Below are positions 2,002-29,260 of a stretch of DNA of 32,000 nt, one piece after another; within the stretch, counting starts at the first letter, position 1; each line of letters opens with the position of its first letter. A model generated the notes under the pieces. The model was given only the letters and a program-made list of their open reading frames with translations. It was not told the origin of the DNA and searched no databases. Position numbers and translations under genes: made by a program. Source of the DNA: Staphylothermus hellenicus DSM 12710 (GTDB lineage Archaea > Thermoproteota > Thermoprotei_A > Sulfolobales > Desulfurococcaceae); contig NC_014205.1 in NCBI RefSeq assembly GCF_000092465.1, forward strand, positions 780,001 to 812,000, written 5' to 3'.

Positions 2002-3318
2002 TTGAAATCATCAAAGACAGTATGGGAAAAGACTATGAGTAAAGAGTACATGTTTGCTACGAAGAAAATCTATCATCACATGGATCTAGATAGGTTTTAT
2101 CAATTAGTTAGAGAACATGTTAAACAAACAAGAATAATAGAAATAGACGTGAAAAAATCACTGAACCATGTTCTCGCCGAAAATATTTATTCACCATATG
2201 ACAGACCATTATTTGATCTAAGCCATGCAGATGGATTCGCTGTAAGATACGATGATATAAAACATGCTAGTAAAGATAACCCTGTCAAGCTTAGTATAGT
2301 TAGAGATGTAAATTCTAGGAAAGCCAATGATTACGTATTGAAAAGCGGTGAAGCAGTTTTCGTTGAGACAGGTTATCCATTACCATTGGGTGCAGATACT
2401 GTTATCCCGATCGAGGAAACAATTGTTAAGAATGAATATGTTTATATTAAGAAGCCTCATCCAAAGTTTTCACATGTTTTTACGCGGGGAAGTGATTATA
2501 GTAGGGGAGAACTGGTTTTCAGTAAAGGTATGAGAATTACTCCATTCATGCTGAAAACACTGTTAGATCTAGGAGTTGATAGGGTGAGAGTACATGATAA
2601 ACCACTTGTAGCATTGTTTAGTGTTGGAGACGAACTTGTTGATGAACCATTCGATCCGGTTAATTGGAAACTACCTACCTCTACTCGTTTCCTAGATAAA
2701 TATGCTATAGAATATTATGGCGGAATAATTATTAGAGAAGAAAAATTACCAGATGATCCAAACATTATTGTTGAAGTAATCAAGAATGTTATTGATAAAG
2801 CAGATATTATTGTGACAATAGGCGGAGTATCAATGGGTCCCAGAGACTATTCTTGGATCAGCCTCTATGAAGCATTTAAACCATTACATTATTGGAGGGG
2901 TCTAAAAATGCATCCAGCAAGGTCAACAAGTGGTTTAATAATAGACGGTAAGCCTATAATTAATCAGCCAGGTCTCCATCAATCCAGCTTATCAGCTTTA
3001 ATACTCGTGGTAACACCTATTCTAAACCATGTTCAGGGACAAATACTTGAACCTAGATATCCATGTGTTAATTTATCATTAACAAATAAGTATGTGGAGA
3101 ACAAGTATATTGACCATTATAGAGTGCGGCCTGTTGAGATACAGGGTTCTAAATGTGAAGTAATCGATTTGAAAGGATCATATTATCTCTCACCATTAAA
3201 TATGAGTGATGGATTCACAATATTGAAGCCGGGGACAAGAGAGATTAATGCTGGAGAGGAGATTAGGGTCTGCTTCTACGAGCCAATACATAAATCATAT
3301 AATGCACCAACTATGTGA
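2002..3318 (+). CDS. moeA: MoeA-like molybdopterin molybdenum/tungsten transferase (divergent paralogue)
   Basis: Length of 438 aa fits MoeA. 'LSHADGFAV' corresponds to the MoeA N-terminal R-S-x-x-DG-[YF]-AV motif. 'GYPLPLGADTVIPIEE' and 'TIGGVSMGPRDY' match the MoeA core. The track start is TTG 2002; the true start may be ATG 2035 (MSKEY...). Confidence 0.8.
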   Translation: MKSSKTVWEKTMSKEYMFATKKIYHHMDLDRFYQLVREHVKQTRIIEIDVKKSLNHVLAENIYSPYDRPLFDLSHADGFAVRYDDIKHASKDNPVKLSIVRDVNSRKANDYVLKSGEAVFVETGYPLPLGADTVIPIEETIVKNEYVYIKKPHPKFSHVFTRGSDYSRGELVFSKGMRITPFMLKTLLDLGVDRVRVHDKPLVALFSVGDELVDEPFDPVNWKLPTSTRFLDKYAIEYYGGIIIREEKLPDDPNIIVEVIKNVIDKADIIVTIGGVSMGPRDYSWISLYEAFKPLHYWRGLKMHPARSTSGLIIDGKPIINQPGLHQSSLSALILVVTPILNHVQGQILEPRYPCVNLSLTNKYVENKYIDHYRVRPVEIQGSKCEVIDLKGSYYLSPLNMSDGFTILKPGTREINAGEEIRVCFYEPIHKSYNAPTM

Positions 3319-3328
3319 GGATTAAGAA

Positions 3329-4093
3329 TTGAGTATTCTAGAAATAGATGAAGCAATCCGCCACTATGCTTTATCACTAATAAATGATTACGGCATAGAC
3401 CCATATGAAAGAGTTATTTGTTATCCAAAAACAGGACATGATCTTGGATTGCCTAGTGAAGAATATGTGTTGATTAGGGGTCCCGAGATACTGTTAACAT
3501 GTATTTATCATGGATATATTGGGCAAGCATTCACTGTTTCGCCCCGAGAGTATAGTGGGAGAGTGATTGACGTATTAAATATGGATTTAGGAGAAATAAG
3601 TAACCGAGGAGTATTCTATGCATTTCTAAACGCTCTATTCCGTAGCCTAGGCCTAGTCGATAAGACTGTGCATTGTAGATCATATGAGCCGGTTAAATGT
3701 GGTATGAAACTTGCAAACCACATAATAGCTAAATACGGTGTTGGCAAGCGTGTTCTACACATAGGTTATCAGCCTGGACATGTAGAGTATCTAGCATATA
3801 TTCTTAAAGACAATCTACTAGTTACTGATCTAAGAAACGATACTGTTTGGAGAAGTAAATATGGTAGACTAGTATATGATGGATTATTTAATGAAAACTA
3901 TATTGGAGTATCAGACATTGTCTTAGTTACAGCTAGTAGTATTGTTAATAAAAGCTTCTGGAACATCATTAGTAAAGCATATTTACTGGGCAAGAAAACC
4001 TATTTATACGGAGTATCAGCGTCTGCAATCACTTATTTCTTAAACAAGTATACCCCATTTAAGATCAATGTTTTCTGCCCCTATGCTAAATAA
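3329..4093 (+). CDS. DUF364/DUF4213-like Rossmann-fold protein (putative heavy-metal chelation family)
   Basis: 254 aa with a TTG start 10 nt after the moeA stop, suggesting coupled expression. 'RVLHIGYQPGHVEYL...LLVTDL' followed by 'SDIVLVTASSIVNKSFWNII...KTYLYGVSA' matches the remembered DUF364 pattern (short Rossmann strand, then D-h-h-h-h-T-G/A-S-T/S-h-V-N). Assigned from memory of the family, not from a search. Confidence 0.5.
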   Translation: MSILEIDEAIRHYALSLINDYGIDPYERVICYPKTGHDLGLPSEEYVLIRGPEILLTCIYHGYIGQAFTVSPREYSGRVIDVLNMDLGEISNRGVFYAFLNALFRSLGLVDKTVHCRSYEPVKCGMKLANHIIAKYGVGKRVLHIGYQPGHVEYLAYILKDNLLVTDLRNDTVWRSKYGRLVYDGLFNENYIGVSDIVLVTASSIVNKSFWNIISKAYLLGKKTYLYGVSASAITYFLNKYTPFKINVFCPYAK

Positions 4094-10745: not shown

Positions 10746-11702
10746 TTATGAATTATTAGACCGGCTGCTTTTAGCTAGGTTTTCTGGTTTAAAATATGGT
10801 TCTCTAAGAAGCGCTGCTTTCTCTAGTAGTTTTTGAAAAGCTTCTTCGTCTCTATCTAGTATGGCTTTTCGAGCATCTAGAACAAGATCGTTTCTGAATA
10901 TGCATAGTTTTATTCTTCCATCAGGGGTCATTCTTATTCTTGTGCATTTCATGCATAGTTCTGGGTTTTGCCAGCCTTTGACTATTGTTATTTTGGAGTT
11001 GTTTGGTAGAACATATGTTGGCCTTGACTGGAACTCTTTCTTATATTTCTTCACACTTATTTTTTCCAGATAGTTAATTATGTTGTTTAAACCTGCATGT
11101 AGTTTTCCATATGTTTCCGGGCTCATGCCTAATGGGATTAACTCTATAATATTCATGTCTAACCCATGTTTTTGCGCAAATGATATGAGGTCTTTGTATT
11201 CATTGATGTTGAGGCTTAGGATAACATAGTCTATTTTAAGCTTTAATCCATATTCTAATGCTTTAAATATACCTGCCAATACTCTCTCTAGATCTCCGCC
11301 TGTAATTGTTTTGAAAACATCTGGTTTTAATGAGTGAAGGCTAACATTTATATGATCAACTTTTTCCTCGGCTAGTTTCTCAGCAAATTCTGCAAGCCTA
11401 GACCCATTAGTTGTAATTGATACTACTCCACCAACCGATCTTATTTCGTGAACAATATCAACTATATCATCTCTAATCAGGGGTTCTCCGCCCGTCAACT
11501 TATAGTATATAATATCGTTTCTAACCCCCATTCTAGCCACAAATCCCCAATCCCCTGGAGAAAGCTCTCTACTCTTTAAACCAAATATTCCTTCACGATG
11601 ACAAAATATGCATGAATGATTACATCTAAGAGTAACACTTATACGCATATGTGTTATTGGCCTACCGAATCTATCAATTAACAATGACCGCACCATCAGC
11701 AT
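10746..11702 (-). CDS. moaA: GTP 3',8-cyclase MoaA (radical SAM)
   Basis: 318 aa. 'RISVTLRCNHSCIFCH' is the CxxxCxxC radical-SAM cluster motif in MoaA context. 'KLTGGEPL' is present. C-terminal Cys residues (CMKCTRIRMTPDGRIKLC) fit the second cluster. Confidence 0.9.
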   Translation of the reverse strand: MLMVRSLLIDRFGRPITHMRISVTLRCNHSCIFCHREGIFGLKSRELSPGDWGFVARMGVRNDIIYYKLTGGEPLIRDDIVDIVHEIRSVGGVVSITTNGSRLAEFAEKLAEEKVDHINVSLHSLKPDVFKTITGGDLERVLAGIFKALEYGLKLKIDYVILSLNINEYKDLISFAQKHGLDMNIIELIPLGMSPETYGKLHAGLNNIINYLEKISVKKYKKEFQSRPTYVLPNNSKITIVKGWQNPELCMKCTRIRMTPDGRIKLCIFRNDLVLDARKAILDRDEEAFQKLLEKAALLREPYFKPENLAKSSRSNNS

Positions 11703-11713
11703 GAATTATTCAA

Positions 11714-11727
11714 TCAAATATATTTGA
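11714..11727. promoter_or_regulatory. perfect 14-bp palindrome TCAAATATATTTGA upstream of moaA
   Basis: Read directly. It lies 12-25 nt upstream of the moaA ATG (11702), downstream of a further A/T box (ATATATT). Its AT-rich composition lowers the significance. Confidence 0.25.
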
Positions 11728-11921
11728 ATCAATATATGGTTAATAAAGAATATTCGAGTCTTTTCAAACATCCTTATTTGACAAAACTAATAATTCTTGA
11801 TAAACATCTGGATAAAATAGCCATTTAATATAGTATCTAGGCGACTGCAGATACTGTAGACGACCCTGTAACAAGTATAGGGATCACTAATATATTATAA
11901 TTGTTATGTATTAACCGAATA

Positions 11922-13415
11922 TTATGGGTTGCCTAAGTTTTCTGAGTAAACCTTTCCTTGGTTATTTTTAGTGTTCCATCTCTGAGGAAGTAATGGTTTC
12001 TCTTGTTCATAGTTTTTACTTATTCTCAGGGCCTCGTATGCTCTGCATATTTCTCCTCCTAAGTAGAATGCGTGGTTCATAAGGGATACTAGTCCTAGTC
12101 TCAGTATAGTGTCCCTGATCTCTTCGCAGCTTCTCCCCTTTATTAATATCTTACCTTTCCTACCAATATAGAGAACCTCGATCACATGTTCTTTATGGTT
12201 AACTCTTATCTTAAATATACCCATAGGATCTATCTGGTATGCGGGATCTCTTGTTGCAAATACTATTTTATCTGGCTTCTCATATTCTGGGTAAACATAT
12301 GTTTTACTTTTCAAATATAATAGATCGATCCCTATATCTCTTGGATTTGTCCCTAAATATCTAGATATTGTTAATAATTTTCTAGCCTCCACTATTTCTT
12401 GAAGGCTCCAAACAAGTTTTTCTTCGAATTCATGAATAATTAATAGGCTTACTCCAGCTTCTATTAAGAGTTCTAGGAGGAATGGGTATAAGCTATGTGT
12501 GTCCGCATCAATGCTGTAACTAATATTGGTAATCCATCCTGCTTTAGCATAATCTATGATTGATTTATACTCGTTTAGTTTGTCTAGTATTTTCTGGGAG
12601 GATAATGTTGGTAGGATGGGATCAATTATTATTTTGTCTCTATAATTCTTCAGCTGGCTGAGTAGTTTATTATTTATTGTTTGGGCTTGAACATGTAGTA
12701 TCTTATTATATTTTAAATAATTGCTGATCTCATCTATTCTTATTCCATATATTATGCTTACATGTTTTAGTAACTGTGTATCTAGAAGATTTGGTGGAAC
12801 AGCTAATCTGCCTGAGTAGCCGAGTTTAACTAGTTTCTCAAATGTTTTCTCTGTGGAGGATTCTGTTAAATAGATTATGTCCGGCTTAAAGACCCGAATA
12901 TATTGTTCTAGAAACTCCTCACCCCACACATGATCATATAGTAGTCCAAGAACTATTGGAGGTGGTTTCAAAGGTACGAGATTCTTATTATTTATTCTCA
13001 GCCACTCTGTTTTCTCCATAAAGTATTTATTAGCTGTTGCATAGATTTGCTCAATGTTTTGCTCTATTATTTTGTCGCCGCTTATGCTTGGCGAGAATTT
13101 CTCTAACCCTATGAGAAACATTGTTTTTAATAATTCTATTCTGCTGGGGGACTTAACTATTTTAATACCTAGTTCTTCAGAGAGATCCTTGAGATCATAC
13201 TTTATAGTTCCAGGTAATATTATGTAATCATATTTTTTAAGATCATGTTTTAGTAGATGATGCTTTATGAATTCCTTAGGTGCTAAGGCTATAACGCTTA
13301 TTGGCAGTGCTAAAACATCTATTATAGTATTTAAACCAATGCTTTCCTTTATTTTCTCTATTTCTTTCTCAACAATCTTCCGGGCCGAGAGACTTGTAAC
13401 TATGAGTACATGCAT
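11922..13415 (-). CDS. archaeal dihydropteroate synthase-related protein (pterin-binding-like region plus DUF4346-like C-terminal domain)
   Basis: 497 aa. The N-terminal 'MHVLIVTSLSARKIV...VLALPISVIAL' and C-terminal 'IDPMGIFKIRVNHKEHVIEVLYIGRKG..ILIKGRSCEEIRDTILRLGLVSLMNHAFYLGGEICRAYEAL' resemble the MJ0301/TIGR00284-type architecture as I remember it. Not verified by search. Confidence 0.5.
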   Translation of the reverse strand: MHVLIVTSLSARKIVEKEIEKIKESIGLNTIIDVLALPISVIALAPKEFIKHHLLKHDLKKYDYIILPGTIKYDLKDLSEELGIKIVKSPSRIELLKTMFLIGLEKFSPSISGDKIIEQNIEQIYATANKYFMEKTEWLRINNKNLVPLKPPPIVLGLLYDHVWGEEFLEQYIRVFKPDIIYLTESSTEKTFEKLVKLGYSGRLAVPPNLLDTQLLKHVSIIYGIRIDEISNYLKYNKILHVQAQTINNKLLSQLKNYRDKIIIDPILPTLSSQKILDKLNEYKSIIDYAKAGWITNISYSIDADTHSLYPFLLELLIEAGVSLLIIHEFEEKLVWSLQEIVEARKLLTISRYLGTNPRDIGIDLLYLKSKTYVYPEYEKPDKIVFATRDPAYQIDPMGIFKIRVNHKEHVIEVLYIGRKGKILIKGRSCEEIRDTILRLGLVSLMNHAFYLGGEICRAYEALRISKNYEQEKPLLPQRWNTKNNQGKVYSENLGNP

Positions 13416-13463
13416 TAATAGTTGTCACCGTATAGTAAAAAATAATATAAATAACTTATTTTT

Positions 13464-15440
13464 CTATTTCTCCAGCGACGTACTTGATAATAACTTGTTT
13501 AGTTTAGCATAGAATCTCTCCCACCATTCTCTAGCCGCTTTCTCCTTGTTCAGGGAGAATTTAGTGTTCCATTCATCGTTGCCGTATTCTTTGGCTGCAT
13601 TAGCTAGATAGTCTATTATTTTCTTGGATTCCCAAAATGTTGGTTTAGCGCCTGCTAGGTCTTGGTATTCCATTATTTTCCTGTATAATTGCTTGTATCT
13701 TTCATCTAGGTTCTTTATTCCATAGTATTTCTCGTATAGTTTGTCAAGTGTTTTCTCAGCCCATTTACGATGGAATCTGCAGAATCCGCCGTTATCGCTC
13801 CACATTTCCTTTATTGCTCTCTCAAAGCTTTTCTCAGCGTATTGTTCAGGGTCTAGGAATACTCCTTTATAGAGTGTCCAGTATCTTCCCAATACTGGTA
13901 GTGGTGCAACCATTCCAGGTGTCCAGTAATAGTTAGGTGTTATGTGTCCTTCTTCGCCGAAGGATGCATATACTAGTAGGTCTGAGAACCTCCATTTCCT
14001 CTCTCTAACTCTGTTCTCATACAGTATATCCAGTATTTTAGCAGCTGATCTTAATCCTTTTTCACCTATCAGCTTCAATAATGGGTTCTTACCCCATGCT
14101 AAGTTCTCTATTAGTTGAACTGCTAGTTCAGCATTGTGTTTACTGTATTCATATTTGAAATCGTATGGATTGAAGAATGGTTTACTCGGCAACCCTACTT
14201 CTCCAGGCGTTAATAATCCCTTCTCAAGAGCATCATATATGAATCCAACTAGTTGTCCTGTCTCTATAGTGTCGAAACCATATGCATCTACCAGTTCTAC
14301 TATCTTCTGTGACTCGTGTATATCAAATACTCCAATGAATGGCCCGAATCCTTCGTAGGGTTCATAGTCTGATTTATACCTGTCTAGTCTAACTTTCTTA
14401 CACGCTATTGGGCATGGCTCTCCACATGTTTTCCATGATTTAGTCTCTATTGCTTCCTTATTGAATGGTTCCCATATGTGTTTCATTATTAGTTCATGTA
14501 GTTTTTCTCTGAGATCAGGCGGTAAATAGATCATGTTCCAGTTAAACATTGGCGTATGTATTTTTAAGCTGGGATAGTTTCCTCCAAGCGTGCCTCCAGT
14601 GTTGAGCTTCGGGTTGTATCTATACTTGGTTCCAGCCTCGATAACCATTGTTATATATGGTTTTCCAGCTATTTCTCTGAACAACTCATTTATTTTACGT
14701 GTATCTAAGAGATCTTTTGGTCTCTTGGTTCTTCTATCGAATTTTCCACCATACACTATAGCTGCTACACCATGTGCTCTGTAGAGAACACTTCCAGGAC
14801 CGCCTCGTGCAGCTAGGTCTTCGCTTCCCCAATCAATTCTTCCTTTTACTAGAGTAATTGATGCTAGTGCTCCTAGGCTAGTATGCTTGGATGCTGGTCC
14901 GACAAGTATTGATCTCCCATTATATTCCTCGTAGAACTTCTTATATTTCTCGCTTAGATATTCTTGGAAAGCATATATGCCTTTTTCTCCCTTATAGTTT
15001 CTCCAAATATTTTCTAGTTCTTTCTCGTCTATCTCGTCAAAATCTGCTTTGACTTCTCCATCTCCTTCATCATATACTTTAATGATTAAGGGCTTATTGG
15101 ATCTGCCCTCGACAACTATTGCGTCAGCATTCACGTTAAATTGATAAGCAGCACCACCCATTGCAGCAACATGTAATCCTCTCGTGATAGGGCTCTTGAA
15201 TACAGCTACAAACCTGTGGCCACCGTAAAGGTTTGTCCCAGTAAAGATACCCGCACCAATTACAACAGCATTATCAGGACTATATGCGGGTTTTTTCCAA
15301 GACTTATATTTTTCGAGGTGAAGCTTTACTCCAAGCTCAATAGGCCCGATTACTTCTTCTAGACCGTGTTCTTCTACCCAGTATTTCCTATTGCTAACAT
15401 CTATAAATAATACCCTATACGTTGTTGAAGAACCACTCAA
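13464..15440 (-). CDS. gor: tungsten-containing aldehyde:ferredoxin oxidoreductase family enzyme, GAPOR-type (glyceraldehyde-3-phosphate:ferredoxin oxidoreductase-like)
   Basis: 658 aa, which is GAPOR-sized. The AOR N-terminal pattern is 'GAGIFTGTNLYGGHRFVAVFKSPITRG...AMGGAAYQF'. 'ARGGPGSVL', 'YRYNPKLNTGGTLGGNYP' and the Cys cluster 'TCGEPCPIACKK' resemble my recollection of P. furiosus GAPOR. The start is TTG, preceded by an AGGTG SD-like motif. Confidence 0.7.
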   Translation of the reverse strand: MSGSSTTYRVLFIDVSNRKYWVEEHGLEEVIGPIELGVKLHLEKYKSWKKPAYSPDNAVVIGAGIFTGTNLYGGHRFVAVFKSPITRGLHVAAMGGAAYQFNVNADAIVVEGRSNKPLIIKVYDEGDGEVKADFDEIDEKELENIWRNYKGEKGIYAFQEYLSEKYKKFYEEYNGRSILVGPASKHTSLGALASITLVKGRIDWGSEDLAARGGPGSVLYRAHGVAAIVYGGKFDRRTKRPKDLLDTRKINELFREIAGKPYITMVIEAGTKYRYNPKLNTGGTLGGNYPSLKIHTPMFNWNMIYLPPDLREKLHELIMKHIWEPFNKEAIETKSWKTCGEPCPIACKKVRLDRYKSDYEPYEGFGPFIGVFDIHESQKIVELVDAYGFDTIETGQLVGFIYDALEKGLLTPGEVGLPSKPFFNPYDFKYEYSKHNAELAVQLIENLAWGKNPLLKLIGEKGLRSAAKILDILYENRVRERKWRFSDLLVYASFGEEGHITPNYYWTPGMVAPLPVLGRYWTLYKGVFLDPEQYAEKSFERAIKEMWSDNGGFCRFHRKWAEKTLDKLYEKYYGIKNLDERYKQLYRKIMEYQDLAGAKPTFWESKKIIDYLANAAKEYGNDEWNTKFSLNKEKAAREWWERFYAKLNKLLSSTSLEK

Positions 15441-19637: not shown

Positions 19638-20624
19638 CTATACTGAATCCATATATGATTGTTGATAAACCATTATTTCCTTTCCAATCTCTTCCCTTAT
19701 TTTACCTAGTAGATCACCTAGTTTATCAATGATGATAGTGCAATCATAGTCGCAATATAGTATTAAATTAGCTTTTACACCTAGCATATCTGTATCAGTA
19801 AATACAACCCTCTGATCACGAGTATAATCTAGCATATGTGAAACAAAGATTAATAATTCTTCACGGTTTCTGGGGGTCGCCCAGTTCTTTAAAGCACTCA
19901 TTATGGAGAAAACTGTTTTCTCGCAGTAATCAATATTGATACATGTATCTTTCAATATTTTCTCAACTATACTTAGATCTTGTATGGGGTGCAGAATTGA
20001 GGCTAGTAATGTTTTATACATTGACTTATCAATTCTAAGACTAAATAGATCAGCAAGCTCTATAACTAATTGAGCAGTCTTAGATGAATGCTTAAACATG
20101 GTTTTCGAACCATGCTTCATAAAATGATTAAATAATTTTCTAAAATGATCCTTATCAATTATTTTCATTAATGAATAATAATCTTCAAGCATTCTCTGCT
20201 GACCAATAGTCTCCAATGCATAAGGAATTCTCTCACGCAAATACTTGACAGCACCAATTAGATCTTGTCCTTTATATACTAGGTACGAAGCTGTTACTAA
20301 ACCGCTTCTTCCAACCCCGCCCCTGCAGTGTACATAAACTCTTCTACCACTACTGATTTGTTTCTCAATATAATTTGATAAGTAATATAGCTCCAATAAT
20401 TGTAAGGGGTGGAAATCAGGGGTTGGAACATGCACATATTCTATACCGTAACTGTTAAGCATTGATAAATAATAATCTATTCCACCAGGTACTTCGTGAG
20501 GCATAATAAGTACTATGAATACATCAAATACTCTGGATAAATTTTCCAATTCATTGATCCGCGGCAACGGGCCCTGAGCCAGCTTGTTTGGAACAATCCA
20601 TACATAGCTCAAATGAACAAGCAC
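19638..20624 (-). CDS. dual-specificity/Cys-based protein phosphatase with a C-terminal helical extension of about 170 aa
   Basis: The catalytic P-loop 'VHCRGGVGRSG' (nt 20301-20330) is the HCxxGxxR(S/T) PTP signature. About 180 further residues have no recognised motif. Confidence 0.75.
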   Translation of the reverse strand: MLVHLSYVWIVPNKLAQGPLPRINELENLSRVFDVFIVLIMPHEVPGGIDYYLSMLNSYGIEYVHVPTPDFHPLQLLELYYLSNYIEKQISSGRRVYVHCRGGVGRSGLVTASYLVYKGQDLIGAVKYLRERIPYALETIGQQRMLEDYYSLMKIIDKDHFRKLFNHFMKHGSKTMFKHSSKTAQLVIELADLFSLRIDKSMYKTLLASILHPIQDLSIVEKILKDTCINIDYCEKTVFSIMSALKNWATPRNREELLIFVSHMLDYTRDQRVVFTDTDMLGVKANLILYCDYDCTIIIDKLGDLLGKIREEIGKEIMVYQQSYMDSV

Positions 20625-20698: not shown

Positions 20699-21721
20699 CT
20701 AGAGAATTGATACCCATCCTTTAAAATGATCCCATCTCATAATTTCATCTATACTGATCTCTTCTTTCTCGAACACTAAACCGTATCCCTGCTCAACTCT
20801 TCCAACTATTTTATGTGGTATTCTAAACTTCTTCATATAATCAATGATCTTGTCTGAAAGCCTAGGATCTATTGCTAATACAACACCGTATTCTTCTCCA
20901 CCGTTTAGTATATGTTTCCATAAACAATGAGTGCTTCCACTACATATTTCTTCTAACTCTTTATAGTATAGAGGCTTATCTTCTAGAACGATTCGAACAT
21001 TTGATCTCTTCGACAACTCTCCCAGCGCATAGCCTAGTCCATCGCTCACATCTATTGAAGCATGTACTCCTCTATAATTACCCGCTATAATAATTGCTGT
21101 TTCAAGAAACGGTCTAGGACGCTTTGTTGCCTCTACAACCCATTTTTTATGCGTAGCTTTCTCAACCCCATTAATCGCTACATAGCCCATTGCACCATAA
21201 ACACCTGTAACAACAACTATGTCTCCAGGCCGAGCGTTTCTCCTACTAGGCGGTTTCTTCGCTGTAGTATAACCTATAACTGCGACACTAATCCATGGCG
21301 TACTAGATGAGTTAGTGTCTCCTCCGAGGAGTCTTAAATTATAATCTCTTGAAGCCTCATCAATACCCCTATATATTTCCTCGACAACGCTTGCCTCCAT
21401 ACTTGGAGGCAGACCTAGTGAAACCATTATATCTCTAGGAACAGCTCCCTTAGCTATTTGATCACTTATAGCCCCTGCTACAGCTACATATCCTACATCA
21501 GACCATGTTCTCCATGGAAGCTTCATAGAGGAAATACTGTATCCATCAATATTCATGAGTATCCGGGGAGAGATTGGGAGAATATCTCGTGCATCATCAG
21601 GGTAATCCAAGTATTCTCCAGGCAACGGTTCATGTATATATTTAGAAATAATTTTCTCGAGAACACCTTCTTCTCCAAGTTCCCCTAGTTTCTTATATCT
21701 ACTCTCCAATTCAGCCACCAA
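20699..21721 (-). CDS. thiL: thiamine-monophosphate kinase ThiL-like (PurM/AIR-synthase-related fold)
   Basis: 340 aa. 'DDARDILP...NIDGYS', 'DVGYVAVAGAISDQIAKGAVP' and 'RLLGGDTNSS' follow the ThiL/PurM-superfamily pattern. Other members of the superfamily are not excluded. Confidence 0.6.
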   Translation of the reverse strand: MVAELESRYKKLGELGEEGVLEKIISKYIHEPLPGEYLDYPDDARDILPISPRILMNIDGYSISSMKLPWRTWSDVGYVAVAGAISDQIAKGAVPRDIMVSLGLPPSMEASVVEEIYRGIDEASRDYNLRLLGGDTNSSSTPWISVAVIGYTTAKKPPSRRNARPGDIVVVTGVYGAMGYVAINGVEKATHKKWVVEATKRPRPFLETAIIIAGNYRGVHASIDVSDGLGYALGELSKRSNVRIVLEDKPLYYKELEEICSGSTHCLWKHILNGGEEYGVVLAIDPRLSDKIIDYMKKFRIPHKIVGRVEQGYGLVFEKEEISIDEIMRWDHFKGWVSIL

Positions 21722-22965
21722 GCCATATGTTTTAATGATTCAATTAATCCTTTACTCCAAGGAATAAATACGTGGTGATTTCCTGTTGCTTTCTCAACGA
21801 ATTCCTCCGGCTTCAATATTCCAGTATCTATGATTAATTGTGTTCTACAATATCCTGGCTCCAATAATCCTGAACGAATAACTTTGCCTCTATAAATTGT
21901 TAATCCATTAAAATCCTTGTCAACCCTGACAAACAATACCTTATCAGTTCTAAACCTGCACACCACAGCATATGGGTTTCCTGTTTCAAAATGTGTTGTT
22001 AAGAAACATTTCCTTCCCAAAATAGGCGCTATTGTGCAATGAGCAAATCTTAGATAACCATCACTAGTTATACCGCTTGGATTAGATATCCATCCAGGAT
22101 AACCAGTTAAAGCTAGGCTAGTGTATAGCGAGATGAGGCTGTAATAGTCGTTTTCACAAGCAGTCGGTATTCCCTCCACATTCATCATTGCAACCGCTAA
22201 ACACGGTGTAACATTGTATTTGAGGACCAAGGGGAAACAATCAATCACTATAGCGTTTGCTCCATGTATCGATAAGAGCTTTCGTAAACCATAATATATG
22301 CGTAGAACCTTGTCTAAATATTGTTTATTAGTGCCTGAGAGATCAATATATTGATGCACAATATTCTCTAATTCCCTTATATCATCAATTGATGCTTCTT
22401 CAGCCCTCCTCCATAATTCATCATAATCTACATGAATAATTTCTGCTCCGAACTTATCCGCAAAAATTTTTCCTTCACCGCTAATCCCAGGATAATCATT
22501 GATCTCTACTATTCTTAGATGCTTTAAACCATACCCAGCAACTAAACCCTTATAGAACAATGTAAACTTCATCAACAAATCATTTCTATCCAAGAAATAC
22601 AACAACTTAACCCTTATACCAGCATCTACTAGCTTACTCCTTAATGAAAGAGCTGATGCTAAGCTATTATGTTTACTATGAGCAATTATAAGTACAGGTT
22701 TTCTATTTGCACCGGTGAGAACCTTATAGGCAAGCCTACTCGTTCCACCAGTCAATAGATAAGCAATAACTAAATCATAATTTCCAAGATCAATTGTTAA
22801 CGGCTCAGTAACTATGTCCTGGTATACCTCTAGATCTTTAAACCCAGACAAGATATCAGTTACTTCACGGAACATAGACTCATAGTAGAGCTCACCATGT
22901 AATCTACTTGCAAAACCCAGTAGAAGCATTTTCATGAAAAACCACCTCGTAACTTGTCTGAACAA
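21685..22965 (-). CDS. L-fucose/L-arabinose isomerase-like protein (COG2407-like), function unknown
   Basis: 426 aa. 'CENDYYSLISLYTSLALTG' and the C-terminal 'GNHHVFIPWSKGLIESLKHMAWWLNW' resemble the sugar-isomerase family pattern (CE-x-D ... HH ... G). Its 3' end overlaps thiL by 37 nt. Confidence 0.45.
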   Translation of the reverse strand: MFRQVTRWFFMKMLLLGFASRLHGELYYESMFREVTDILSGFKDLEVYQDIVTEPLTIDLGNYDLVIAYLLTGGTSRLAYKVLTGANRKPVLIIAHSKHNSLASALSLRSKLVDAGIRVKLLYFLDRNDLLMKFTLFYKGLVAGYGLKHLRIVEINDYPGISGEGKIFADKFGAEIIHVDYDELWRRAEEASIDDIRELENIVHQYIDLSGTNKQYLDKVLRIYYGLRKLLSIHGANAIVIDCFPLVLKYNVTPCLAVAMMNVEGIPTACENDYYSLISLYTSLALTGYPGWISNPSGITSDGYLRFAHCTIAPILGRKCFLTTHFETGNPYAVVCRFRTDKVLFVRVDKDFNGLTIYRGKVIRSGLLEPGYCRTQLIIDTGILKPEEFVEKATGNHHVFIPWSKGLIESLKHMAWWLNWRVDIRN

Positions 22966-23053: not shown

Positions 23054-26000
23054 TTATTTACAGGAATTCAATATGTATATAAACATGTTAGTTAATCCTT
23101 TCATATTTATTTTCTCATATCGCTCACTGATGTATCCACAGACTAGTTCTTTGGCTTCCCCGTAGAAGAATGGGTTTTCAATATTACTAAATGCTGATAA
23201 TATGTTTTGTAATATCTCGGAGATTCTAATTATTTGTTCGAATCTCTGGTTCTCGAATACTATTTTATCATATGTTTTAAGAGCTAGCTCGTAATATTTC
23301 AATGCATTATTATAGGCTTTTTTCATATGATAATACGTTGCAAGCCTATAATAGGTATCTCCAATAATATTCAAAGGTAGATGTTTCCTGGCCTCATTGA
23401 TCTCTAGGAGAGCCGTGTATGCTTTAACAGCCTTATCGGTTTTTCCCTTATATTCCAATGCTTTTCCTATAATATATAGTAGCTTAGCCTTCAAGTCTAA
23501 CCTATTAATCTTATCTATGATCTTATTTGCTTTTCTCATGGCCTTGCCTATTTTACCTTTATAATATAGTATTTGGGCTTCGTATGCTTGACGTATATCT
23601 TTACTGATAATACGGGATATTTTTTCTAATTGCCTCTCCGCCTCTTCGTATCTGCCGTTTATTAATAATGAGTCTATATGTAATAGAATAAGCTCTGGAT
23701 CATTTATTGTTCCTATGATCTTCGACAATATTTTATTAATGTAGTCCAGCTTATTTAATTCGCTGAGAATAATAACTACTCTTTTCAAATACTTTATATT
23801 AGGCTTTATAGAATCTAGATTGGCTGTTTCTAATAGATCAATTAATGTATTAATACTTTTACCTATACCATATGATCCAGCATGTTTCCACTGCATAATT
23901 ATTAGTCTCGAAATACTCTGAATAGCCATGCTATACGTTATTTTCTTTTTTCTAAGTTGTTCATATACGTAGTTGATTATTTCTTCAACACTTTTTTCAG
24001 CGAGTAAATAATTAATCCTATATGAAATAATAAATAATAACGTCATGAATTTAAGCCGGTTGATCGGGTCTCTAATAGTCAATACTGTCTCAGAGGCTTT
24101 TTCAAGCGCTGTCCTATATAGTTTATTTCCAATTAAGCACTTGATAAACCAATAATTAGCCATAACCTCCATTTTCGGAGATAGTTTTCTGGTTAAGATG
24201 TTTTTCAAGGATTTATGACATGTTGAGTAATCATTGTCTTGGATCTCAGAGATATTGATCCATAATTCTAGAATATTTCTTTTCCTCGCGTACACTCTTC
24301 GAGATATGTTTTTGAACTCATTTAGTAGTTCTAGTGCTTTCTTAAAATAGTATTTAGCTTTTCCAGGGTTTCTATGTATCTTTACATAGTATATTCCCTT
24401 AGCATATAAGTAGTCTAAATAGATCTTTTTCGCCCATATACCATAGTTCTCTAATAACTCGTTGTATTGATTATCTAGTTCAAGATATTTCTTATCGATT
24501 CTTTTCTTCCTAACCATATATAAGGGTACAATACTGAGGTAAACATATTTGAAGCGAGGAATACTAATGTATTTTTCAATACTGTTCAGATATGTTTCAA
24601 CCAGATCACTGCTAACCCATTTCTTTAAGAGCCCGTTCCTAATAATGCGTCCTAGTTCTAAAATCTCGTATAGTTCTAATTTATTGAGATCTCTAATGAT
24701 TTCTATAAGGTGTTTCCTAAATATTCCCTGTTCATCTAGGAGGATTGATGCTTTTAAGCATTCTAGATGGTTATAGCTACATGTATGTTTATCATGTATT
24801 TCTTTTAGAGACCTGATTATTGATAATATTGGGTTTAGATATTTTATTTCCACAATATGGCCATACGAATCTATATCTTCAAGGAACTTGTTAATTATAG
24901 CTTGTGCATCGTTAATTCTTTTCTTCAATAAATTAGTTATAGCTAGTTTATATAGAGAACGCATATATGTATATATAAAATTCAATTCCCCATTAATTAA
25001 TCTATTATATGCTCCTATATATGATCTGTTAATGCTAAGCATAGATCTATCGAGATCTCCTATTCTGAGATATATATTTGCCTTATAGTATTCACTTATC
25101 GGGTCAGTGCTTGAAATAATCCTATTTATCCTCCCACTTAGATAATCTAGCATTATAATCATTTGTTTATTGAGCAACTTTTTCTTCTCGAGTAGTCTTC
25201 GAAGCTTACTATATTCTCCCGTTAAGTAGAATATTTTCTGTTCCAGCTTGTGAGAACCAATTTTGTATAGGTGGTCGAGTAAGGGGAGGACTTGCTTATG
25301 TAAGATTATTTTATCTATCATTTGATCAATCAAGATCTTCTTTAGTAATGTATCTTTAACGCCACGATATTGCTTAATATACTCTTCTATACTGCGTTCA
25401 CTATTGTTAATTATTGCTATTAATTTCTTAGATTGTTTCTTCGGTATCTTATATTTCCGTATGATGTCTAAGTAATCTGCTTCTATCCTATTTTTAAGCA
25501 TAAATAAGATCAAATAATATGCTGCGTTACTTATGTCTTTACTCATAATTATGTTCTTCTTCAAATCTAATACGTCCGGGTTTCGTGAGTGTTCAAGGAA
25601 ATGTATTGGAGATACATGTATTGTTTTGATCGAGCCCTTATTTATTGTTTCAACTAATAGTTCCGGATAGTTATTTGCTAAAACAAGGGCTTCTATGGGA
25701 TTTTCTATTTTATATGCAATATTTTTTCTTAGAGAGTAAATATCTTCGAGAAAAGATTTTATCTCATCAATTATTTCACTTATGTTCTCGTCTTCGCATA
25801 GTTTTTTCAGGCTCAGAATCCATTCTTTATGAGGTATTGTATATATTTCAGTATTTATATTTCCTAGTAGAAGTGATGGATCACCATAGGCGTTCCTATA
25901 CCTAGTTATTGACATAATCATGTTTCTAGTTGTGACATTGTTTAAGCCATGATATGCTGTTATGAAGCCTATTAAAGGAGCATATTTACGAATATAATAG

Positions 26001-27025
26001 TATCTAGTTATGAGCCTCTTTAATAGATCAGTGATATTATCGTATTCTTCTTTCAACCTATTCTTAGCAGTATATTGTCTAATATGTAAGATTTTTAAAT
26101 TGTCTGTTCGTTCAAGGAGCTTCTCATTTGAAATCTCCTGGATTTCGCTCGGCGAATATAATTGATCGGTTAGAGCTAGGATAACCGTTTTATTCTTGAA
26201 ATGAATAGGTTTACCTATATCCTCGTTTCCCAACACTATTTTTTCTCTCGGCAATATTTTATCTAGTAGATCAACTTTCACAGATTTAATTGAAACAATA
26301 TATCTTCTTCCTTGAAGCTGCCTCAGCTCTTCTAAGCCTAAATCATCGCCTACATATATATTTGTTCGTGGAACATTTTGAGGAGAAGGACCTGTAGCAA
26401 GTTTTAGATTATGCTTCTTCATCAATATATGGCTGGCCATGAATAAATGAGTGGTTTTACCTGTAAAGCTAGGACCAGATATAATAAGGTTATTGTTTTT
26501 AGCAACAATGTCTGCCAGCCATTTTGATCTCTTTATTAATTCTCTTGTCAGAATAAGTTCATTTAATGGAGTGTTTAAATAAACTGCTAGTTCTAAGTAA
26601 TTGTTTATCGGCTTATAAAATAAGTATTTCAACAAATCATATTCTCTTCTCAAGATCTCTACTTGCTTCTTCATTCTTGAACATAAATCGTTACCAAGTG
26701 ATAGATCTGAGCATAACTGGTCGAAGCCGTGTTTATTGAGAAAATTATTTAACAGTTTCAATCTAAGATCTGGATCAATAATGCATAAGTCTAGTTTTGA
26801 TATGATCGCATTATTTTTCCTACCTATCTCCCTATTAATAATGTATTCGCATCTTCTCAAATAGTCAATATTTGTTCCTAGAATATCTCTGTACCGGGTA
26901 AGTGTTTTTTCTAATCCCTCCACTAATAAATCATGAACCAAAATTATAAGAGATAACATGTGGGGATAAACAAATATTTTCTCCTTCAAATCCCTTATAA
27001 GCTCTAATAATAGTTCTTCCCTCAA
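23054..27025 (-). CDS. 1323-aa orphan P-loop NTPase with an extensive helical/TPR-like C-terminal region (STAND-like architecture)
   Basis: Uninterrupted ORF with a TTG start preceded by AGGTG. Walker A 'GPSFTGKT' is at aa 184-191 (nt 26453-26476). Candidate Walker B 'IYVGDD' is at aa 223-228 (nt 26342-26359); the alternative is 'VILALTD'. TPR-like helical pairs at aa about 1107-1255 (nt about 23261-23707) include 'LLINGRYEEAERQLEKI', 'ILYYKGKIGKAMRKANKII', 'LLYIIGKALEYKGKTDKAVKAYTALLEI' and 'YYRLATYYHMKKAYNNALKYYELALKTY'. Confidence 0.8.
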   Translation of the reverse strand: MREELLLELIRDLKEKIFVYPHMLSLIILVHDLLVEGLEKTLTRYRDILGTNIDYLRRCEYIINREIGRKNNAIISKLDLCIIDPDLRLKLLNNFLNKHGFDQLCSDLSLGNDLCSRMKKQVEILRREYDLLKYLFYKPINNYLELAVYLNTPLNELILTRELIKRSKWLADIVAKNNNLIISGPSFTGKTTHLFMASHILMKKHNLKLATGPSPQNVPRTNIYVGDDLGLEELRQLQGRRYIVSIKSVKVDLLDKILPREKIVLGNEDIGKPIHFKNKTVILALTDQLYSPSEIQEISNEKLLERTDNLKILHIRQYTAKNRLKEEYDNITDLLKRLITRYYYIRKYAPLIGFITAYHGLNNVTTRNMIMSITRYRNAYGDPSLLLGNINTEIYTIPHKEWILSLKKLCEDENISEIIDEIKSFLEDIYSLRKNIAYKIENPIEALVLANNYPELLVETINKGSIKTIHVSPIHFLEHSRNPDVLDLKKNIIMSKDISNAAYYLILFMLKNRIEADYLDIIRKYKIPKKQSKKLIAIINNSERSIEEYIKQYRGVKDTLLKKILIDQMIDKIILHKQVLPLLDHLYKIGSHKLEQKIFYLTGEYSKLRRLLEKKKLLNKQMIIMLDYLSGRINRIISSTDPISEYYKANIYLRIGDLDRSMLSINRSYIGAYNRLINGELNFIYTYMRSLYKLAITNLLKKRINDAQAIINKFLEDIDSYGHIVEIKYLNPILSIIRSLKEIHDKHTCSYNHLECLKASILLDEQGIFRKHLIEIIRDLNKLELYEILELGRIIRNGLLKKWVSSDLVETYLNSIEKYISIPRFKYVYLSIVPLYMVRKKRIDKKYLELDNQYNELLENYGIWAKKIYLDYLYAKGIYYVKIHRNPGKAKYYFKKALELLNEFKNISRRVYARKRNILELWINISEIQDNDYSTCHKSLKNILTRKLSPKMEVMANYWFIKCLIGNKLYRTALEKASETVLTIRDPINRLKFMTLLFIISYRINYLLAEKSVEEIINYVYEQLRKKKITYSMAIQSISRLIIMQWKHAGSYGIGKSINTLIDLLETANLDSIKPNIKYLKRVVIILSELNKLDYINKILSKIIGTINDPELILLHIDSLLINGRYEEAERQLEKISRIISKDIRQAYEAQILYYKGKIGKAMRKANKIIDKINRLDLKAKLLYIIGKALEYKGKTDKAVKAYTALLEINEARKHLPLNIIGDTYYRLATYYHMKKAYNNALKYYELALKTYDKIVFENQRFEQIIRISEILQNILSAFSNIENPFFYGEAKELVCGYISERYEKINMKGLTNMFIYILNSCK

Positions 27026-27099
27026 TCTCGGAAAAACACCTTTCCATACAAAGTTTTCTATAAATAATATTTATATGTGGAAAAAATAAAATAGCAACG

Positions 27100-27882
27100 C
27101 TAAGTTCTCCTTCTTCTTGACGCTATCAATGCATATATGAGGATAACCAATATAACAACTATTATGGTTCCGCCTACGTATTGGATAGGATAGCTGTTCT
27201 CTATGTTGCTAGGTGTACTTGTATGCTTGTTTGTTTCCGAGGTTGTCTGGGTACTTGTTTGTATCGGTGTATGTGTTTTGCCAATGTATTTATAGAGTTG
27301 TTCCAGATTTGTATCTATGAGTTTATAGTGTAGTATATATTTGTAGTTGGTATAGTTAGTTGTTTCATTAACATCGTTTAAATAATAATAGTCAAGTACA
27401 ATGCCTGTTCCACGATCATATGTTACATTAATGAATAAATAAGATGCTAGGTTATCCCTTGTAGACACAGACTCGTATGGTTTTGGATTATCAGGTATTG
27501 TTTCTGGGTTTACATATATGTTAAACCTTGTTTTATTATATGCAGTATCCCATCCAACAAATGCTTCAGACCTACTACCAGGGGATCCAAGAACCCGTGA
27601 GAAATACCCTTTTGTATCGTTAAGACTTAAAAGCTCATAGAATCCTTTCATTCCTGTCTCATTAAGTGATGTAGCAACAAACCTTGCAGTGCCAACTACA
27701 TAGTAGTTGGCCAGATCCTCTCTTATAGGCGGATTAGTTATGATGCGGGCCTCTATTTTATACTGGAAATAAACCCCCGGCTTAGCCCATGTAGGGATTC
27801 CTTGGATAATTGGGGAGGAAACTAGAAAGCCTATTACTATTGTTGTTGTTAATGCTATAATAAGAACCCTATAATTGAACAG
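27100..27882 (-). CDS. surface protein with C-terminal membrane anchor; probable N-terminal signal-anchor upstream of the first ATG
   Basis: The track ORF is 27100..27651 (183 aa). It has a Thr/Ser-rich stalk (TPIQTSTQTTSETNKHTSTPS), then a TM segment (GGTIIVVILVILIYALIA) and RRRRT. The same frame is open up to 27882 and encodes LFNYRVLIIALTTTIVIGFLVSSPIIQG..., which looks like a signal or anchor. GAGGTG at 27890-27895 and a TATA-like CTTTATAAATAT at 27937-27948 support a start near 27882. Confidence 0.6.
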   Translation of the reverse strand: MFNYRVLIIALTTTIVIGFLVSSPIIQGIPTWAKPGVYFQYKIEARIITNPPIREDLANYYVVGTARFVATSLNETGMKGFYELLSLNDTKGYFSRVLGSPGSRSEAFVGWDTAYNKTRFNIYVNPETIPDNPKPYESVSTRDNLASYLFINVTYDRGTGIVLDYYYLNDVNETTNYTNYKYILHYKLIDTNLEQLYKYIGKTHTPIQTSTQTTSETNKHTSTPSNIENSYPIQYVGGTIIVVILVILIYALIASRRRRT

Positions 27883-27988: not shown

Positions 27989-29260
27989 CTAATATAGTAT
28001 TACGTCTACAATGCTCCCCTTCTCATAGCCCTCTATATTCTCATATAGTATTATATAGCCATTTGTTTTTACAAGGCTAGACAATATTCCGCTTCCCTTC
28101 AACATGTATGGTTCAACAATTACTTTGTTGCCGGGGCCGATACGTGTAGTTACTCGTATATAGCTTCTATAACCCACTGTATTAGGTACTCGGCGTGCTA
28201 GAATGCCTTGAACAACTGGTTTAACAGGCTTTTCCAAGCCTAAAATACTATATATTGTTGGAGAAACAATTGCTTCAAGACCTGTCCATGCAGCAACAGG
28301 GTAACCACTTAGTAGAAAGACTGGTTTATCATTAATTATTGCTGCACTTGTAGGTCTACCAGGCCTCATAGCGACCCCTCTAAACACCCATTCACCATAT
28401 TCATCAACGATGTCTCGGATAACATCTTCATCGCTTACACCGGTTCCACCAGTGGTTATGACTAAGTGGTTTTCTCTCAATGCTTTAAATAATGCTTCCC
28501 TTAATACTTCTTTCTCGTCTGGAAATACTCCATAGTATTTGCCCTTGGCGAGTCCTAGTGTTTCAACATAGTTTTTCACAAGCACACTTGTTGAATTATA
28601 TATTTGTCCACTGCTAAGCTTATATCCTGGCTCAACAAGCTCTGATCCCGTCCCTATAACTCCTATTCTCAGCTTCTCATAAACCTTTACAGAATTAATC
28701 CCTGTGCTTGCTATAATTGATAAATGCCATGGTTTAAGCAGGGTATTCTTCTTAACAAGAACCTCGCCTTTCCTATAATCCTCGCCTTTCCTGGAAACAT
28801 TAGCCCCACTAGGCACGGGCTTGTATATTTCGACTTCGTCTCCTACACGATTAGTATCCTCATACATTACAACAGCATCAGCACCCAATGGTAGAGGTGC
28901 GCCTGTCGCTAACTCAACGGCTTCACCATTTCTCACAACGTATTCTTCTGGAGTAGAGCTTGGAGACATGTATCCCTTAACCCTTAATATTGCAGGGTTA
29001 GTTGGTGATGCACCTGTAGTGTCAGAGCTTATAACAGCGTATCCATCAACAGCGGACCTATCATATCTAGGCTGATCAATTAATGCTAAAATATCTTCTG
29101 CGGAAACATAATATAGTGCGTCCCAAACAGTTTTCTCAATAATCCTTAACTCTACAAGATCCTTAAAAGCCCTAGTAGCTTTATTAACAGCTTCATCAAC
29201 ACTGATCAAACTGCCCAGGAACTTCACCATAACCATGCACCACTGACTTAGCTGTATCAT
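27989..29260 (-). CDS. moeA: MoeA molybdopterin molybdenum/tungsten transferase (canonical-looking paralogue)
   Basis: 'PRYDRSAVDGYAV', 'TGAPLPLGADAVVMYEDT' and 'TTGGTGVSDEDV' are MoeA blocks. The true start is probably at an internal Met (MVMVKFLG...). Confidence 0.85.
   Translation of the reverse strand: MIQLSQWCMVMVKFLGSLISVDEAVNKATRAFKDLVELRIIEKTVWDALYYVSAEDILALIDQPRYDRSAVDGYAVISSDTTGASPTNPAILRVKGYMSPSSTPEEYVVRNGEAVELATGAPLPLGADAVVMYEDTNRVGDEVEIYKPVPSGANVSRKGEDYRKGEVLVKKNTLLKPWHLSIIASTGINSVKVYEKLRIGVIGTGSELVEPGYKLSSGQIYNSTSVLVKNYVETLGLAKGKYYGVFPDEKEVLREALFKALRENHLVITTGGTGVSDEDVIRDIVDEYGEWVFRGVAMRPGRPTSAAIINDKPVFLLSGYPVAAWTGLEAIVSPTIYSILGLEKPVKPVVQGILARRVPNTVGYRSYIRVTTRIGPGNKVIVEPYMLKGSGILSSLVKTNGYIILYENIEGYEKGSIVDVILY

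Follow-up and report, generated by a model that had tools for sequence, protein, structure and literature searches.

Here, we describe the longest open reading frame (ORF) in a 32,000-nucleotide stretch of the Staphylothermus hellenicus DSM 12710 genome (NC_014205.1, positions 780,001 to 812,000). This whole stretch is called the window below, and positions refer to it unless another locus is named. The ORF occupies 23054..27025 of the minus strand, begins with TTG, ends with TAA and encodes 1323 amino acids; the ORF listing bears out the original prediction, made from the DNA letters alone, that it is the largest gene in the window. From base composition, the probability that a frame of 1323 codons stays open by chance is about 1e-44. 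The product is 100% identical to an NCBI protein of S. hellenicus whose name, "tetratricopeptide repeat protein", says nothing more, and a literature search by accession number returned no paper on it. We find that the protein very probably has the fold and architecture of a STAND NTPase, with tetratricopeptide repeats (TPRs) at the end of a long helical arm. Its parts, and the putative signals in front of the gene, are as follows.

23054..27025, minus strand: whole ORF; probable STAND-type NTPase with a TPR arm, matching the NCBI protein at 100%.
27061..27080, minus strand: TATA-like AT-rich stretch CCACATATAAATATTATTTA, about 45 nucleotides (nt) 5′ of the start; putative promoter, read by eye.
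27037-27040, minus strand: GGTG, a putative ribosome-binding site 12 nt before the TTG, read by eye.
26576..27025, minus strand: N-terminal domain, residues 1–150; about six helices predicted, low-confidence model.
26156..26545, minus strand: nucleotide-binding domain (NBD), residues 161–290; pLDDT about 77–95, with AAA+/STAND matches.
26453..26476, minus strand: Walker A, GPSFTGKT, residues 184–191; follows the strand at residues 179–183 in the model.
26342..26362, minus strand: Walker B, NIYVGDD, residues 222–228 (hhhhDD at 223–228); on the model strand at residues 223–229.
25826..26155, minus strand: lid/helical plus winged-helix domain (WHD), residues 291–400; LYxPxEI, YYYIRKYAPLIGFI, YGDPSLLL.
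25829-25831, minus strand: His399, invariant, directly after the wing hairpin.
25406..25825, minus strand: second helical domain (HD2-like), residues 401–540; Apaf-1 alignments of more than 520 columns.
23591..25405, minus strand: long helical arm, residues 541–1145; predicted alpha-solenoid with weak kinesin-light-chain and IFIT TPR matches.
23261..23590, minus strand: canonical TPR block, residues 1146–1255; Pfam, NCBIfam (weak) and PDB profile matches.
23054..23260, minus strand: C-terminal tail, residues 1256–1323, plus stop codon; invariant C1296 and C1322.

The case for a nucleotide switch begins with the Walker motifs. Walker A lies exactly where the original prediction had placed it, and its candidate Walker B, of the form hhhhGDD, is confirmed at residues 222–228. 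A homolog of 38% identity retains both, reading AKPYSGKS for Walker A and NILVIDD for Walker B. The pattern [AG]xxxxGK[ST] occurs three times in the protein (at residues 184, 1050 and 1189), against 0.03 occurrences expected from composition, and the match at residue 184 alone is conserved in homologs. The other two, GSYGIGKS (residues 1050–1057; 23855-23878, minus strand) and ALEYKGKT (residues 1189–1196; 23438-23461, minus strand), lie within helical repeats, are unconserved in homologs and were rejected as P-loops. Walker A and Walker B are separated by 37 residues, which makes for a very compact NBD.

Structure prediction places these motifs in an NTPase fold. A first AlphaFold model, covering residues 1–600 and built from three sequences, was poor (pLDDT 50) and was kept out of the fold search. 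A second (AF2), covering residues 150–540 and built from an alignment of eight family members, reached a pLDDT of 88.2 and a pTM of 0.81. Its core consists of helix alpha0 (residues 161–175), a strand (179–183), the P-loop and a helix (190–205), with further NBD strands at residues 208–210 (short), 223–229, 241–246, 262–265 and 280–284. A helical lid then starts at the invariant Y290, part of the LYxPxEI lid start, and is followed by a helix-strand-helix unit with a beta-hairpin, of winged-helix type, then by His399 and a further helical bundle. The modelled region shows the tripartite arrangement of NBD, helical domain and winged helix. In STANDs such as Apaf-1 and the NB-ARC proteins, the nucleotide-contacting histidine of the 'MHD/LHD' motif is positioned right after the wing. 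In the model, His399, which is invariant in all eight members, is predicted to fall at the same site.

When the model of residues 150–540 was compared with the PDB using Foldseek, the best match was ADP-bound Apaf-1 (1z6t; E 4e-4, probability 1.0, query TM-score (TMq) 0.41). Full-length Apaf-1 (3sfz; TMq 0.39) and the Dark apoptosome also match, and Avs4 (PDB 8dgf) ranks fourth. The predicted likeness to Apaf-1, CED-4 and Dark covers the NBD, helical domain, winged helix and second helical domain, and extends to the hhhhDD Walker B, the invariant His after the wing, the all-helical N-terminal domain and a C-terminal repeat sensor. The differences are that the protein gives no NB-ARC match and has the compact NBD, with 37 residues between the Walker motifs; that its sensor is of TPR/solenoid type, whereas that of Apaf-1 is WD40; that its N-terminal domain is not recognisably a CARD; and that it is archaeal and limited to a few hyperthermophiles. 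AAA+ proteins (RFC, ORC/Cdc6, DnaA) share the order of alpha0, strand 1 and P-loop, as well as a lid start of the form Yxx(E)hxxI after strand 5. However, those without the extra helical domain (RFC, ORC, Cdc6) reach a TMq of only about 0.2–0.25, lower than that of Apaf-1; no AAA Pfam match accompanies the likeness, and the present protein has in addition an HD2 and a repeat arm of 780 residues. The domain order that the original prediction had read as STAND-like (N-terminal module, NTPase, helical arm) is supported, Apaf-1 being the best fold match, and the predicted structure of the NTPase core is that of a true NTPase with lid and winged helix.

One other element of the modelled core deserves mention. 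Between core strands four and five, a loop carries EDIGK (residues 268–272; 26210-26224, minus strand), and the basic residue of this conserved [ED][ED]IG[KR] motif is retained in 7 of 8 members. The motif is a candidate arginine finger and could act in trans in an oligomer.

Profile searches leave both the NTPase and the N-terminal domain unrecognised by curated families. For the full protein, no curated NTPase family was found in Pfam, NCBIfam or PADLOC. NB-ARC gives no sequence match in the eight members even at E 10, and AAA-family Pfam models match neither the full protein nor any of the eight at E ≤ 10. The sole NTPase family with any sequence signal, and so the best in Pfam, is nSTAND3 (PF20720), with 18.3 bits against a cut-off of 27.2 and a best E of 0.0019 (3 of 8 members); the match spans about 34 residues around Walker A and, being below cut-off and confined to that region, does not amount to membership. 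When a hidden Markov model (HMM) profile of the NTPase region was searched against PDB sequences, nothing significant emerged, the matches being a designed coiled coil and RFC2 (E 0.3). The STAND assignment is made at the level of fold and motifs, and it lies outside every curated STAND family. The protein is the first member of a previously unrecognised and unannotated STAND family, within a class that is itself known. The label "orphan", used in the original prediction, is apt in so far as no curated NTPase family matches, but it is too strong, since about seven full-length clusters at 50% identity exist.

Ahead of the NTPase, residues 1–150 form a domain that the low-confidence model predicts to be all-helical. 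These residues are homologous across all family members, and the invariant P85 sits in a conserved motif, LDxxIxDPxxR. With a net charge of -2 to +7 across members, the domain is not notably basic. Residues 1–160 match neither Pfam nor PDB sequences, be it for a fold or for an effector, in keeping with the original description of an N-terminal region that has no recognisable catalytic motif. The same description had singled out residues 143–166 as possibly helix-turn-helix (HTH)-like, and this is not borne out. The segment precedes NTPase strand 1 and leads into helix alpha0: residues 161–166 begin the helix into strand 1, residues 150–160 are mostly coil, and residues 143–149 lie outside the model. 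The equivalent region of RFC2 aligns with this stretch at E 0.3, insignificant alone. No HTH family matches the segment, and no HTH, LuxR or SARP domain was found in any member by Pfam, including a scan at E ≤ 10. The HTH reading was rejected.

Behind the NTPase, helical repeats account for about 60% of the protein, in an arm of about 780 residues that is predicted from sequence to be helical. Residues 541–800 are the least conserved stretch of the protein. Pfam matches are limited to TPRs at residues 1146–1255, with weak TPR similarities from NCBIfam. TPR_2 passes its cut-off of 27 bits with a score of 32.3 (residues 1180–1211), TPR_1 and TPR_12 score slightly under their cut-offs, and TPR_MalT is weak (24.6 bits against 45, residues 1146–1255). 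Consensus TPR proteins in the PDB match residues 1190–1254 at E 1e-12. With TPR_2 above cut-off, the TPR-like repeats that had been noticed near the C terminus are confirmed at residues 1146–1255. In the tail that follows, C1296 and C1322 (window 23057-23146) are invariant in all eight members, among the 25 invariant columns, and could form a disulfide or a metal site.

The family to which this protein belongs is small and apparently restricted to Desulfurococcales. Word-indexed searches with the single protein, with a three-sequence profile and with an eight-sequence profile returned three proteins only, namely the protein itself, a relative at 81% identity and another at 38%. An exhaustive HMMER scan, in which a profile of residues 1–1100 was run against 1.84 billion cluster representatives, returned 10 proteins, of which seven are full-length (1292–1384 residues); the distant members were found by HMMER alone. 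Named sources are Staphylothermus marinus F1 (ABN70658.1; the 81% ortholog) and two metagenome-assembled genomes (MAGs), labelled 'Staphylothermus sp.' and 'Thermoprotei archaeon'. Contigs that carry the conserved neighbour gene described below are labelled Desulfurococcales or Desulfurococcaceae.

Alignment of eight sequences yields 25 invariant columns of 1490, among them P85, G189, T192, Y290, His399, C1296 and C1322, and contains no conserved stretch of 7–10 residues. The NBD and the lid/WHD are the best-conserved regions of the protein (the lid/WHD is 60% identical where the whole protein is 38% identical), which argues against a decayed nucleotide site. The window protein and four other members keep both Walker A and hhhhDD in fully canonical form. 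Across all eight, K190 of Walker A is Lys in five and Arg in three (GRRT in P0005 and P0006, GRTT in P0011), and the acids of Walker B are DD in five, a single D in two and absent in P0005. With Arg-substituted P-loops in three of the eight, canonical hydrolysis, and perhaps binding, would not be family-wide, and these substitutions argue that catalysis is not universally required. The family is unusual in its 37-residue Walker spacing, constant N-terminal domain, vertical inheritance and partly Arg-substituted P-loop.

Two genes downstream of the long gene are its conserved companions:

21685..22965, minus strand: downstream neighbour of 416–426 residues, likely starting at ATG 22935; distantly AraA/FucI-like.
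20699..21721, minus strand: ThiL-like gene of the AIR-synthase family; next conserved neighbour.

In related contigs, the order is kept: a surface protein of about 260 residues, the long gene, the 416–426-residue protein and the ThiL-like gene. With the 416-residue neighbour as anchor, a search through a single genome for each GTDB species gave 13 Desulfurococcales-type loci. The two genes that flank the long gene in the window also flank it at loci L001, L002, L003, L005, L006, L008 and L046, and a family HMM places it directly upstream of the 416-residue gene in L005–L008. By the same HMM it is absent from this site in L009–L011 and L013–L016. There, the surface-protein gene abuts the 416-residue gene (L009–L011, L013, L015) or another ORF lies at the site (L014, L016), and no remnants of the long gene were detected by tblastn or by HMM search of ORFs of at least 30 residues. 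The map of presence and absence across related genomes is mixed, with the gene at one site in eight lineages and missing from that site in L009–L011 and L013–L016. A tree of the neighbour protein recovers carrier clades at 94% and 100% bootstrap and one clade lacking the gene at 100%, with deep nodes unsettled. As judged from these sequences, the presence or absence of the long gene is clade-structured and old.

The original prediction had taken low GC content as a sign of an accessory or recently acquired gene. The GC content is indeed lower (0.314 versus 0.365 ± 0.030 for the 22 other window ORFs), but that at third codon positions (GC3) is not (0.313 versus 0.310 ± 0.039), the deficit being confined to codon positions 1 and 2. 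Because the protein is rich in Leu (14%), Ile (13%), Lys (10%), Tyr (7%) and Asn (7%), and GC3 equals that of its neighbours, the low GC content is explained by protein composition; GC3 carries no foreign signal, and low GC was rejected as evidence of a foreign origin. Identity of the long protein tracks that of the adjacent gene's product over 28 locus pairs (Pearson 0.95), although the long protein is always the more diverged of the two (81 versus 86%, 38 versus 60%, 31 versus 54% and 25 versus 45–53%). Between the window and an S. marinus-like contig, the synonymous rate (dS) of the long gene is 0.47, compared with 0.38–0.49 for four neighbours, and its ratio of nonsynonymous to synonymous rates (dN/dS) is 0.215, compared with 0.10–0.22; no 150-codon window exceeds 0.54. 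On the evidence of GC3, synteny, the correlation of 0.95, dS and dN/dS, recent acquisition is therefore rejected, and the sequences show purifying selection and co-inheritance with the flanking genes. The suggestion that the gene was recently acquired does not survive, given an S. marinus ortholog of 81% identity at the same fixed site, a dS like that of the neighbours and a dN/dS of 0.215.

Other statements about the neighbourhood stand. Family matches confirm that the genes around are housekeeping ones, including two MoeA genes, MoaA, an AFOR-family oxidoreductase, ArgRS, FeoB and the ThiL-like gene. Within the window there is no tRNA, no integrase and no flanking repeat beyond chance-level AT-rich matches to mark an island, as originally noted. 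Several of the neighbours belong to a pterin-cofactor set (2002-4093, 10746-15440 and 27989-29260), comprising the two MoeA paralogs, MoaA (radical SAM plus Mob_synth_C), a DUF364 protein, which is a putative metal-chelation protein, and a PterinBD-DUF4346 protein. These surround the aldehyde:ferredoxin oxidoreductase family gene at 13464-15440, referred to as 'GAPOR' in the original prediction.

The 416-residue protein is syntenic with the long gene in eight lineages. It matches no Pfam family above threshold; AraA_central is weak (E 0.014, in three of four orthologs), as is a sulfoquinovose isomerase, SftI (E 2e-5), and relatives at 27–30% identity occur in SAR324 and Bacteroidia MAGs. By these matches, it probably represents a sugar-isomerase-like family that has yet to be described. 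At its 3′ end, its gene runs 37 nt into the ThiL-like gene, and the gaps between the long gene and the gene downstream are short (16–69 nt); in L045, the long gene overlaps the start of the ThiL-like gene by 4 nt. The short gaps and the L045 overlap hint that, in several lineages, the long gene may share a transcript with the metabolic genes behind it, the isomerase-like and ThiL-like ones. In the window, the sequences in front of the TTG would give it a putative promoter and ribosome-binding site of its own. The isomerase-like/ThiL-like pair persists in lineages without the long gene.

Upstream, the minus-strand gene at 27100-27882 likely encodes about 260 residues, compared with the 183 called. 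The protein has a hydrophobic signal or transmembrane segment at its N terminus, a Thr/Ser-rich linker and a C-terminal transmembrane anchor whose last residues are RRRR. Read from stop to stop, the whole frame shares 84% identity with L002:4613-5389, and no canonical start occurs until ATG 27651, by which point 77 codons of conserved sequence have passed; gene callers shorten the L002 copy as well. This comparison suggests that the gene either uses a non-canonical start codon or is systematically mis-called.

Just 3′ of the ThiL-like gene in related loci lies a gene for an ABC-type AAA_15/AAA_23 ATPase of about 380–390 residues, followed by a partner of 530–560 residues without matches (L003:17116-19912, L045:15074-17856, L046:6435-9288, and also L008 and L014). 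Weak matches of the ATPase to AbiLi, GajA, PtuA and AriA fall mainly on its N-terminal P-loop, and the pair occurs independently of the long gene. In the window, a gene for a dual-specificity phosphatase (19638-20624) takes the place of the pair. P0011, the family's most distant member, comes from a high-GC archaeon (L004:6873-9803) and lies outside the conserved context. It adjoins a divergently oriented PLD-family nuclease (DrmC-like, E 1e-21, with an LTD domain) and a small winged HTH protein with CasR-like matches. A 431-residue gene 3′ of P0011 was considered as an ortholog of the 426-residue neighbour and rejected.

What might such a protein do? The reading we prefer, to which we give an even chance, is that it is a STAND-class nucleotide switch of the Apaf-1/NLR/MalT kind, founding a new Desulfurococcales-only family with a cellular, clade-specific signalling or regulatory role. 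That the role is cellular rather than antiviral seems to us, from the sequences, slightly favoured. By analogy with solved STANDs, the protein would act as a ligand-gated ADP/ATP switch. At rest, the NTPase would be held in its ADP-bound form, clamped by the winged helix and the arm; a ligand on the TPR/solenoid arm would take the clamp off and allow nucleotide exchange; and the NTPase domains would then oligomerise, gathering the N-terminal helical domains as an output.

A serious rival, possible if doubtful, is that the protein is an Avs-like antiviral STAND, in which the TPR arm would sense a conserved viral protein, the NTPase would oligomerise and the N-terminal domain would serve as a novel toxic or adaptor effector, leading to abortive infection. 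Avs4, the fourth-best fold match, shares with it the STAND core, the long TPR-type sensor arm and a length of more than 1300 residues. The fast divergence of the protein relative to its neighbours, and the precise alternation of presence and absence of the gene between two conserved genes across Desulfurococcales, would fit an antiviral role, as would the PLD nuclease with a DrmC-like match (E 1e-21) next to P0011 and the AAA_15 ATPase pair, with its weak AbiLi, GajA and PtuA matches, a few genes downstream in related loci. A recent survey (PMC12803255) characterises immune STANDs by extensive horizontal gene transfer, by a wide choice of N-terminal effectors and by the defence genes around them; none of these three hallmarks was found for this family or locus. 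Inheritance here is vertical and syntenic, whereas horizontal transfer and defence islands are typical of Avs (PMC12803255). The N-terminal domain is constant across the family, not swapped, and resembles no nuclease, protease, TIR, SIR2-type or other recognisable effector. In the window, the neighbourhood is a housekeeping one, and PADLOC finds nothing for the protein or its neighbours. Across the eight members, no PADLOC Avs or other defence model matches, the only signals being weak ones to TPR and PDC-S35 models, each in one member. No relatives were found on IMG/VR viral contigs, phage records or plasmids. Additionally, a dN/dS of 0.22 with no window near 1, and a Walker A Lys that is naturally Arg in three of eight members, speak against an antiviral sensor. 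We know of no described virus of Staphylothermus.

A role as a transcription regulator of the MalT/AfsR type, in which a metabolite on the helical arm would act with ATP to drive oligomerisation, and the N-terminal domain or C-terminal tail would bind DNA and switch on the isomerase-like and ThiL-like genes, strikes us as unlikely. AfsR has the domain order N-domain, NTPase, TPR, and the same order is seen here. The protein also shares with these regulators the combination of an NTPase with a helical/TPR sensor, a weak TPR_MalT signal (24.6 bits, residues 1146–1255) and adjoining metabolic genes, since it lies directly upstream of the isomerase-like and ThiL-like genes on the same strand, in eight lineages and with short gaps. 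However, the whole region is syntenic, so adjacency is unspecific, and the supposed target pair is unchanged in lineages that lack the long gene. Nor is a DNA-binding domain detectable: no member has an HTH, LuxR or SARP domain, residues 143–166 lead into alpha0, the N-terminal domain is not basic, and the TPR_MalT score is far under its cut-off of 45.

An equally improbable and more specific proposal is a vertically inherited, Apaf-1-like STAND that hyperthermophilic Thermoproteota would use in the manner of an apoptosome. The conserved domain of six helices at its N terminus would then serve as an adaptor resembling the death fold or as an effector of a new kind, the protein would act as a cell-intrinsic signalling hub in stress, dormancy or programmed death rather than as a virus sensor traded horizontally, and the Arg-bearing P-loops would be non-hydrolysing in part of the family. 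Least plausible to us is a nucleotide-independent scaffold, with a degenerate P-loop and a TPR/solenoid platform that assembles other proteins, which would accommodate the Arg substitutions in three of eight members, the GRRT variant that replaces the Mg-binding Thr, the missing Walker B acid of P0005, the 60% share of helical repeat and a disulfide or metal site as suggested by C1296 and C1322, but which sits poorly with the canonical Walker A and hhhhDD of the window protein and four other members, with G189, T192 and His399 being among only 25 invariant columns of 1490, and with the strongest conservation falling in the NBD and lid/WHD, which implies selection on the nucleotide site.

Several observations weigh against a cellular STAND switch, the reading preferred here. 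Sequence profiles assign the NTPase to none of the curated STAND families, Foldseek gives modest E-values (1e-4 to 1e-3), and the Walker A–Walker B spacing of 37 residues is unusually short for STAND or AAA+ proteins. Three of eight members have Arg in place of Lys in Walker A, and one of them, P0005, lacks the Walker B acid as well. No Pfam or PDB match identifies the output domain. An AT-rich, promoter-like stretch precedes each window gene, which speaks against co-transcription with the metabolic genes. Finally, the protein evolves much faster than its neighbours, other Desulfurococcales lack its gene at this site, and P0011 adjoins a PLD-family nuclease; the first two of these are also compatible with a conflict gene.

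In public databases, this protein is annotated simply as a TPR protein. The family has a minimal NBD. Most current discussion of prokaryotic STANDs treats them as mobile sensors of viruses. A STAND family that is fixed in the chromosome, inherited together with housekeeping neighbours, held under purifying selection and partly Lys-to-Arg substituted would be a useful counter-example to that view, and would aid the study of STAND roles outside immunity and of how much of the nucleotide cycle such switches require. Were the antiviral alternative true, it would imply an unknown virus-host system in Staphylothermus. Proteins of hyperthermophiles are also well suited to structural work.

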